DNA from: Shigella phage sb1
Direction: 5' to 3' (one strand)
Sequence record: PQ666539
Length of the DNA stretch: 64,000 nucleotides
Below the pieces are notes generated by a model that did not search any database, was not told where the DNA came from, and saw only the letters and a list, made by a program, of their open reading frames with translations. Shown piece by piece: positions 12,557 to 14,841 of the stretch. A program made the position numbers and the translations under genes. The number at the start of each line of letters is the position of its first letter. The stretch's first letter is position 1.

Positions 12557-13027
12557 TTAATCATGTTTCCACACCCCATCGGTATTTGACCAAAGTCGCT
12601 GATTATCTGATCCTCGCCACAGCTTTTTGGTAGGAAGATTTTTCTCATACTTCCCATCAATAATAACATCAACATATTTAAGCATTTCTAGTTGTTTAAT
12701 ATCCTCAAATTTATATCCTGTCCACAACCAAATGCTTTTATTTGGATAAAGATTTTTTACTGTTTGAACCACAGAGTGAATAACATCTCGGTTATCAGGA
12801 TAGAGAGGGTCTCCTCCAGTTATAGTCAATCCTTCTATATAATCATTATTCAAACATTCAATTAATTGTTCTAGTTTTTCACCAGTGAATGTAACACCAT
12901 TTCTAGCATTCCATGTTTATTTATTATAACACCCTTCGCATTTATGAAAACACCCTGTAACTAAAACAACGACCCTGCATCCAGGGCCATTCACAAAATC
13001 GCAAGGATAAAATCTATCATAATTCAT
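12557..13027 (-). pseudogene. nrdG: Anaerobic RNR activating protein NrdG (radical SAM), 156 codons with in-frame TAA at 12917..12919
   Basis: ATG at 13027..13025 gives MNYDRFYPCDFVNGPGCRVVVLVTGCFHKCEGCYNK-stop-TWNARNG... continuing into track ORF 12557..12853; CxxxCxxC cluster; total equals T4 NrdG. Confidence 0.8.
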
Positions 13028-14841
13028 TGGTGTTTAACCCTATGCATGATTTCTTTATTTTTGCCAAGATTAAATCCGAGTTCATTCGGATTTCCCAAAT
13101 AGCCACATGTTCTTCTTATTGTGTTCATCTTTTTAGGATCAGTTTCTCCACAAATAGAACAAACAAACCCGTTTTCAGTAGGAGTCATTTCATGGGTACT
13201 TCCACACGTAAAACATTTATCTACTGGCATGTTAACACCAAAATAATATAAATGTTGTGCAGCATAATCCCATACAGCCTCAAGACCTTTTAAGTTATTT
13301 TTCATATCAGGAAGTTCAACATAAGAAATGTGACCACCTGTCGCAATGAAATGATATGGGGCTTCGCGAGAAATCTTTTCAAACGGAGTGATATTTTCTT
13401 ATACTGAAACATGGAAACTATTAGTGTACCAGCCTTTATCAGTAACATCTTTTACACTTCCATATTTCTCAGTATCAAGTTTACAGAAGCGATAGCACAG
13501 GTTTTCAGCAGGAGTAGAATACAAGCTAAAAGCAAAACCGGTTCTTTCAGTCCACTGTTTAAGACGAGCATTCATTTTAGTTAAAATTTCCTGTCCAATA
13601 TCACGACCGACAAGAATATTCAATTCGTGAATACAAATGTATCCTAAGGACACTGAACTTCTACCGTTTTTAAATAACTCAATTATGTCATCATCAGGTT
13701 TAAGACGAACCCCGAATGCACCTTCTTGGTAAAGAATAGGAGCAACAGTCGCTTTAAATACTTTTAATGAACTAATTATACACATCAAATCTTCAAAAAA
13801 CAAATCCATTCGTTCATTGAACAATTCGGCAAATTTCTGTTCATTGAACTGTGTTCCAATATAAGAATCTAACGCAATGCGAGGAAGATTCAGTGTTACA
13901 ACACCAAGATTATTACGTCCATCAAGAATTTCATTACCAGTCGAATCTTTCCATACACTTAAGAAACTACGGCAACCCATTGGAGAAACAGGAATAGATG
14001 AACCGGTGATAGCTTTATTATTCTTAACTGAAATAATATCAGGATACATTCTTTTGCTTGCACACTCTAGAGCAAGCTGCTTAATATCATAGTTTGGATC
14101 GTCTTTATAAAGATTAACACCTTCTTCAACGAACATAACAAGCTTAGGGAAAATAGGAGTTATCCCATCACGACCAAGGCCTTTAATACGATTTTTCAGA
14201 ATTGCTTTCTGAATCATTCGTTCAGTCCAGTCAGTTCCCGTGCCAAACGTAATTGTTACAAAAGGTGTTTGTCCGTTTGAACTAAAGAGAGTCTTTCGTT
14301 CATATTCATAAGCTTGGAATGCATCGTATACGTCTTTTTCTGTTTTAGACTGGGCGTAATTAAACGCATCAGCGATTTGCCATTTTTCTGCATCATCAAT
14401 ATGTTTTGCATAGGTGCGTTTAACATAAGGAGAAAGTACTTTATCTACATTCGCAAAAGTCGTTCCGACATATTGATGAGAAGCAACCTGTGCAGTAATT
14501 TGTGCCATAATTGCAGTAGCAACGCCAATTGATTTAGGAGTTTCAATCTGCGCATTACCGAGCTTAAATCCGTTCTCAAGCATTCCTTTTAAATCTACTA
14601 AACAGCAATTAGTAAATGGAAGAGCAGGGGAATAATCAATATCGTGGAAATGGATAATTCCGCTTTCATGTGCTTTCATAATAAAAGACGGGACCATATT
14701 TTTGGCAATGTGTTTAGACACAATACCAGCCATAAGGTCCCGTTGAGTTGGAAAAACACGAGAATCTTTATTAGCATTCTCGTTTAAAAGGTCTTTATTA
14801 GTTTTATGAATCAATCCTTCAATTTCTTTTTCAATCGTCAT
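13024..14841 (-). pseudogene. nrdD: Anaerobic ribonucleotide reductase NrdD, intronless 605 codons with in-frame TAA at 13399..13401
   Basis: Track ORFs 13399..14841 and 13024..13305 are in the same frame with 31 sense codons between; C-terminal zinc ribbon and glycyl-radical motif RRTCGY; span is exactly 606 codons. Confidence 0.85.

Follow-up and report, generated by a model that had tools for sequence, protein, structure and literature searches.

The nrdD-nrdG locus

We examined the anaerobic ribonucleotide reductase genes of Shigella phage sb1 in a 64,000-nucleotide (nt) stretch of its sequence record PQ666539, which is referred to below as the window. Two adjacent genes on the minus strand make up the locus: the orthologue of nrdD (14841..13024), which encodes the class III anaerobic ribonucleotide reductase in 605 amino acids (aa) plus a stop codon, i.e., 606 codons in one intronless piece, and the orthologue of nrdG (13027..12557), which encodes the radical S-adenosylmethionine (SAM) activase in a 157-codon frame (156 aa plus a stop codon). 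The nrdD stop and the nrdG start overlap in an ATGA at 13027..13024 (minus strand), and mobC, the homing-endonuclease gene that T4 has between nrdD and nrdG, is absent. The sole interruption of each frame is an in-frame TAA, located on the minus strand at codon 481 of nrdD (13401..13399) and at codon 37 of nrdG (12919..12917). All the compared relatives carry both genes intact, with GAA (Glu) at codon 481 of nrdD and TCA (Ser) at codon 37 of nrdG; read on the plus strand, the changes in the window are C>A at 13401 and G>T at 12918. The nrdG TAA lies four codons past the CxxxCxxC motif (C26-x3-C30-x2-C33, residues 26-33). The original prediction, made from the sequence alone, had claimed the positions of the two TAA codons, an nrdD of exactly 606 codons without an intron, and an nrdG stop just after the radical-SAM motif. 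The first and the last of these were borne out by the sequence, and the second was confirmed by the open reading frame (ORF), the alignment and an Rfam scan.

Apart from the two stops, both genes are intact: their lengths equal those of the relatives and no indels are present, with codons 482-605 of nrdD open and conserved past the TAA and codons 38-156 of nrdG open as well. When codon 481 was read as Glu, NrdD matched the Pfam families NRDD (PF13597; E=7.6e-163, residues 21-604) and Gly_radical (PF01228; E=4.7e-25, residues 481-586), and it aligned over its full length with 1H78, the sequence of the T4 NrdD crystal structure. An exact look-up of the 480-aa NrdD fragment that precedes the stop found no such protein on record. 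NrdG, with its stop read as the residue of the relatives, matched Fer4_12 (PF13353; E=4.8e-47) and Radical_SAM (PF04055; E=7.2e-08). The zinc-site cysteines 543/546/561/564 and the RRTCGY motif with G580 are present in the nrdD frame downstream of the TAA; the numbering of the glycyl-radical residue G580 and of the four-cysteine zinc site follows the T4 NrdD structures. Both NrdD and NrdG therefore show the domains and motifs of their families, while neither is encoded by an uninterrupted frame. The Gly_radical match (481-586) begins at precisely the residue replaced by the nrdD stop, which we judged to be a coincidence. Further downstream, an ATG-initiated ORF of 93 aa (13305..13024, minus strand) spans the zinc site and G580.

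The nearest relatives of the window are Tequatroviruses of the pSs-1/Sfk20/sb2/UGKSEcP2 type. The whole window aligned with Shigella phage sb2 in a single blastn high-scoring segment pair at 96.5% identity, with 2173 mismatches and 47 gap positions, and the best DNA identity to any record of the phage collection was about 97%, which is unusually distant for so densely sampled a group. At the locus, the window is colinear with the intronless nrdD-nrdG genes of the Shigella phages pSs-1, Sfk20, sb2 and sb3 and the Escherichia phages UGKSEcP2 and IME339, which likewise measure 1818 and 471 nt and overlap in ATGA; in these relatives, however, the reading frames are intact, and the window differs from them chiefly by private G:C>T:A substitutions. 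With T4 (structures 1H78/1HK8), the window shares the gene order 49-nrdD-nrdG-55.8 and, in the proteins, C290, the zinc cysteines, G580 in RRTCGY and the CxxxCxxC motif of NrdG. Unlike T4, the window lacks the 1033-nt intron, I-TevII and mobC, and has one in-frame TAA per gene, along with 11 private missense changes of the G:C>T:A class. The window is thus that of a pSs-1/sb2-like Tequatrovirus, and its nrdD-nrdG operon is an ordinary intronless one. Elsewhere, at 17331-17627 (minus strand), the window has CGA where an ORF annotated in sb2 has its stop codon, which is either a lost stop or an annotation specific to sb2, as other relatives annotate this stretch differently.

In T4 (NC_000866.4), the nrdD intron occupies 44815-45847; it is a group I intron of 1033 nt and encodes I-TevII. 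Its insertion site corresponds in the window to 14304/14303 (minus strand), after coding-sequence nt ~538, where the window is contiguous and nothing is inserted. This site was placed by sliding the splice point in an alignment to spliced T4 nrdD, and the placement agrees with the intron coordinates of the T4 record. The alignment consisted of two adjacent blocks without a gap across the intron site, giving a clean intronless junction at the T4 exon boundary, and the Rfam scan found no group I intron anywhere in the 64-kb window. A hidden intron in nrdD is ruled out by these two results; neither Rfam nor the alignment detected any intron-like sequence within 13024..14841 that the original prediction might have overlooked.

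The absence of the intron had been taken to fit a T2-like lineage, a reading that did not hold. Of 50,697 phage records, no more than 25 contained the T4 nrdD intron sequence (T4 or its derivatives in almost every case), while the nrdDG locus matched 1022, and the best 40 of these 1022 locus-matching records were all intronless (one piece, 100% coverage). Because the intron is this rare among records with the locus, an intronless nrdD is the common or default state; it carries no lineage information and is not a T2 marker, and the nearest relatives are the pSs-1/Sfk20/sb2-like Tequatroviruses. The 15-20 nt just 3' of the T4 intron site (14303..14285, minus strand; nrdD codons ~180-186) are strongly divergent among T4, sb2 and the window, with near-identical flanks; judged from these sequences, the target region of I-TevII in alleles without the intron contains a hypervariable patch.

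In-frame stops and substitution spectrum across the window

For a survey of premature stops, 104 annotated sb2 genes were mapped onto the window and, in the same way, onto Sfk20, pSs-1, UGKSEcP2 and Ec_YwIITB1. The results showed that 17 of the 104 genes, all of unchanged length, carry exactly one in-frame stop in the window (14 TAA, 2 TAG and 1 TGA), compared with 0-1 such stops in each of the four relatives. Besides nrdD and nrdG, the affected genes are rpbA, 46, ORFs of the nrdC.6/.7/.8 type, several small ORFs, and 3, 5, 6, 9 and 10. The 15 further stops lie at 3667-3669, 4676-4678, 21188-21190, 21753-21755, 22294-22296, 25911-25913, 38039-38041, 38353-38355, 39753-39755, 41066-41068, 45504-45506, 49212-49214, 50418-50420, 57107-57109 and 58189-58191; the relatives have sense codons at these positions, and 14 of the 15 arise by G>T or C>A. 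Taken together, 16 of the 17 stops are a G>T or C>A change (coding strand) of a codon conserved in the relatives, and the remaining one is TAT>TAG. The origins listed are GAA>TAA (9, including nrdD codon 481), TCA>TAA (4, including nrdG codon 37), TAC>TAA (2), GGA>TGA (1) and TCG>TAG (1), and the amino acids displaced are Glu, Ser, Tyr and Gly. The original prediction had considered a simultaneous inactivation of both reductase partners, rightly on condition that the stops are real. Such an event is not specific to them: the two nrd stops are 2 of the 17 in the window, which include stops in essential structural and replication genes and stem from an unselected layer of G:C>T:A changes described below.

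Private indels in the window were few, and none was in a long homopolymer. They were located at 23824, 24450, 60276, 31224, 34389, 41504 and 43188, and comprise 1-nt deletions that frameshift gene 12, which encodes the short tail fibre, and the orthologues of nrdC.10 and nrdC.11, a 7-nt insertion that breaks the vs gene, and further private 1-nt indels. Genes 3, 5, 6, 9, 10, 12 and 46 are essential by classical T4 genetics. Because stops fall in essential genes, the sequence as it stands cannot belong to a phage that replicates, and no phage bearing it would be able to grow.

The substitution spectrum was determined from the singleton substitutions of each genome in 43,023 alignment columns common to the window and five relatives. 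Among the 436 singletons of the window, 163 (37%) were G:C>T:A, compared with 4-32 (3-13% of theirs) in the five relatives; in contrast, the 203 transitions of the window were ordinary beside the 53-274 of the relatives. Smaller excesses of A:T>C:G and A:T>T:A were also found in the window. The G:C>T:A singletons were mildly raised in sb2 (32) and Ec_YwIITB1 (27) relative to the other three relatives (4-9; window 1-47500), a possible sign that deposited records besides this one carry such noise to a lesser degree. A comparison of the 5 kb around nrdD and nrdG with eight relatives gave a similar picture, as 33 of 41 private substitutions of the window were G:C>T:A, compared with 0-4 private G:C>T:A changes in seven of the relatives and 15 of 61 private substitutions in Shigella phage sb4. 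The G:C>T:A changes occur along the whole window (1..64000) at 1.08% per C and 1.07% per G, i.e., symmetrically between the strands and at ~1.07% of G:C pairs, and they showed no flanking-base preference (C at -1 in 16% vs 17% background; G at +1 in 17% vs 16%).

The effects of these changes on the encoded proteins were compared with neutral expectation. The 140 coding G:C>T:A changes fell on codon positions 1/2/3 in numbers of 61/45/34 (neutral expectation, 44/33/23%) and comprised 15 synonymous, 112 missense and 13 nonsense changes, indistinguishable from neutral proportions (8.6/78.9/12.4%; chi-square p = 0.40). In contrast, the private transitions departed strongly from neutrality, both for G:C>A:T (67 synonymous, 29 missense, 0 nonsense; p = 1.7e-33) and for A:T>G:C (77 synonymous, 17 missense, 0 nonsense; p = 2.4e-16), with 70-82% being synonymous. 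Since the G:C>T:A changes stand at neutral proportions and the transitions are mostly synonymous without a single nonsense change, the window consists of two layers, namely a purified evolutionary divergence and a G:C>T:A set that was never exposed to selection, the latter being the source of both nrd stops. The two nrd genes contain 13 private G:C>T:A changes, none of them synonymous (2 are nonsense and 11 missense, the latter including G125V, C348F, G361V, G403C, D532Y and R588L); of their 5 other private changes, 3 are synonymous.

The G:C>T:A changes also extend to the cluster of ten transfer RNA (tRNA) genes at 41561-42388, a region that is usually very conserved and here has seven private changes of this class and a 4-nt deletion near tRNA-Tyr (41810). 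The Rfam scores were 33 bits for tRNA-Tyr and 44 bits for tRNA-Met, compared with 59-74 bits for most of the other tRNAs. These observations are consistent with unselected noise that reaches structural RNAs.

Origin of the two premature stops

The two TAA codons are very probably sequence artefacts of a noisy record rather than a biological inactivation. According to this explanation, a normally evolving genome is overlaid by a random, unselected G:C>T:A layer of about 1 change per 100 G:C pairs, in which a G>T change turned GAA into TAA at nrdD codon 481 and a C>A change turned TCA into TAA at nrdG codon 37. G:C>T:A is the most stop-prone mutation class in an AT-rich T4-type genome, and this accounts for the prevalence of TAA among the in-frame stops. 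The layer most likely originated as an error of the deposited or assembled sequence, either of the guanine-damage type or as a consensus artefact. While the spectrum, the lack of selection and the extent of the layer are directly seen in the alignments, we infer the precise technical cause and leave its source open.

G:C>T:A is the substitution class of guanine damage, and the best-documented laboratory source of C>A/G>T artefacts is 8-oxoguanine (8-oxoG) formed during shearing. The artefact from acoustic shearing consists of C>A/G>T changes in a CCG>CAG context at low allelic fraction, with an asymmetry of read orientation (Costello 2013, PMC3616734). The window shares with this library artefact the substitution class and probably a non-biological origin, but it lacks the CCG>CAG context and its changes sit in the final consensus; acoustic shearing is therefore not supported as the specific cause, given that the class fits and the context does not. 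Context-specific miscalls at glucosylated hydroxymethylcytosine (hmC) were likewise unsupported, as there is no context signal, the rates at C and G are equal, and the few indels lie outside homopolymers; in the literature on nanopore sequencing of hmC phage DNA, nothing directly applicable was found. A comparable record is that of sb4 (PQ666542.1, 43500-48500), whose annotation splits nrdD into three fragments and gene 49 into two. Like the window, it is a T4-like record with genes fragmented by private substitutions that the relatives do not share; unlike the window, its stops lie elsewhere and its spectrum is A:T>T:A-prominent. Because these stop positions and the private spectrum differ, the window is not a copy of sb4, and sb4 is an instance of another noisy T4-like record within this clade.

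Several points weigh against an artefact. The error status was deduced rather than seen in reads. Neither C at -1 nor G at +1 is enriched, so that the shearing mechanism of 8-oxoG is not demonstrated, and the scarcity of private indels and their position outside homopolymers are unlike a typical long-read or 454 error profile. Moreover, 16 G:C>T:A stops were observed in the window against 24.4 expected from the rate, a slight deficit that is compatible with weak selection or partial curation.

We regard it as unlikely that the G:C>T:A changes are real in the sequenced DNA, coming from a guanine-damaged or mutagenised stock or a mutator, in a bottlenecked or non-viable population, with the nrd stops as incidental passengers. 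The spectrum matches guanine oxidation or depurination in vivo as well as in vitro, and the strand symmetry is that of fixed mutations; guanine oxidation is known to lead to G:C>T:A changes by way of 8-oxoG, with MutM/MutY and the A-rule as its background. However, the changes stand at neutral proportions and include nonsense changes in at least six essential genes, and gene 12 is frameshifted; no clonal phage with such a genome could form a plaque, and extrapolation to the whole genome gives ~600-700 unselected changes. We give very little credence to the broader claim that the changes are truly in the DNA, whether as a G:C>T:A-hypermutated genome kept by complementation or as an NrdD functionally divided at the glycyl-radical boundary into a catalytic subunit and a radical-bearing module.

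It is very improbable that this phage has specifically lost its anaerobic ribonucleotide reductase, with both partners of the pathway pseudogenised as anaerobic deoxynucleoside triphosphate (dNTP) synthesis was no longer needed. Such a loss would account for a premature stop in each of two adjacent, functionally linked, non-essential genes; a truncated NrdD ending before residue 481 would have no glycyl-radical domain at all, and the greater part of the activase would be missing if NrdG ended before residue 37. Against this stands the chance of such a pair under the background noise. nrdD contains 72 sites at which a G:C>T:A change makes a stop, giving 0.77 expected stops at 1.07% per site and a probability of 0.54 for at least one; nrdG contains 20 such sites, with 0.21 stops expected and a corresponding probability of 0.19. 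The joint probability of a stop in both genes is thus about 0.10, and the pair is no more than chance for this window. The lesion is also not specific to the pathway, being shared by 17 genes including essential ones, and it is accompanied by no secondary decay (no indels, downstream frames open), with the compared relatives intact.

That a suppressor tRNA or programmed readthrough lets ribosomes pass the TAA codons, or that TAA has been reassigned, such that full-length NrdD and NrdG are still made, is extremely unlikely, even though TAA makes up 14 of the 17 in-frame stops and the frames downstream are intact. The tRNA set, the use of terminators and the replaced codons each contradict such recoding or suppression. 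The ten tRNAs of the window make up a normal T4-type set, and no suppressor anticodon (tta, cta or tca) is among their anticodons, which are tct, gtt, gta, cat, tgt, tga, tgg, tcc, taa and ttg; TAA is the main terminator, ending 62 of the 104 genes; and the stops replace four amino acids, with TAG and TGA also found in frame. In addition, the excess of TAA is fully explained by G:C>T:A changes on GAA, TCA and TAC.

Hardly credible is the idea that nrdD is divided in two, with residues 1-480 forming a catalytic barrel and a glycyl-radical module being translated on its own, in the manner of the stand-alone "spare part" protein GrcA/YfiD. The stop does fall exactly at the start of the Gly_radical match, and the 93-aa ORF covers the zinc site and G580. 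However, the stop is a single private noise-class G>T absent from the compared relatives, residues 482-512 would be lost, a ribosome-binding site was neither looked for nor found, and 9 private missense changes of the G:C>T:A class also fall in nrdD. Relatives encode, ~20 kb from nrdD, a small protein whose annotation is GrcA, the autonomous glycyl-radical cofactor (UGKSEcP2 36265-36627), and the orthologous region of the window lies at about 33.1-33.5 kb.

With an artefact of the record as the favoured explanation of both stops, caution is needed in deriving biology from this genome. A reading at face value would suggest that anaerobic dNTP synthesis has been lost in this phage, together with many further gene "losses". 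The test of codon position and spectrum separates the selected divergence, carried by transitions, from the unselected G:C>T:A layer; every in-frame stop and odd missense change in the window is to be distrusted, and findings that rest on them are to be discounted.

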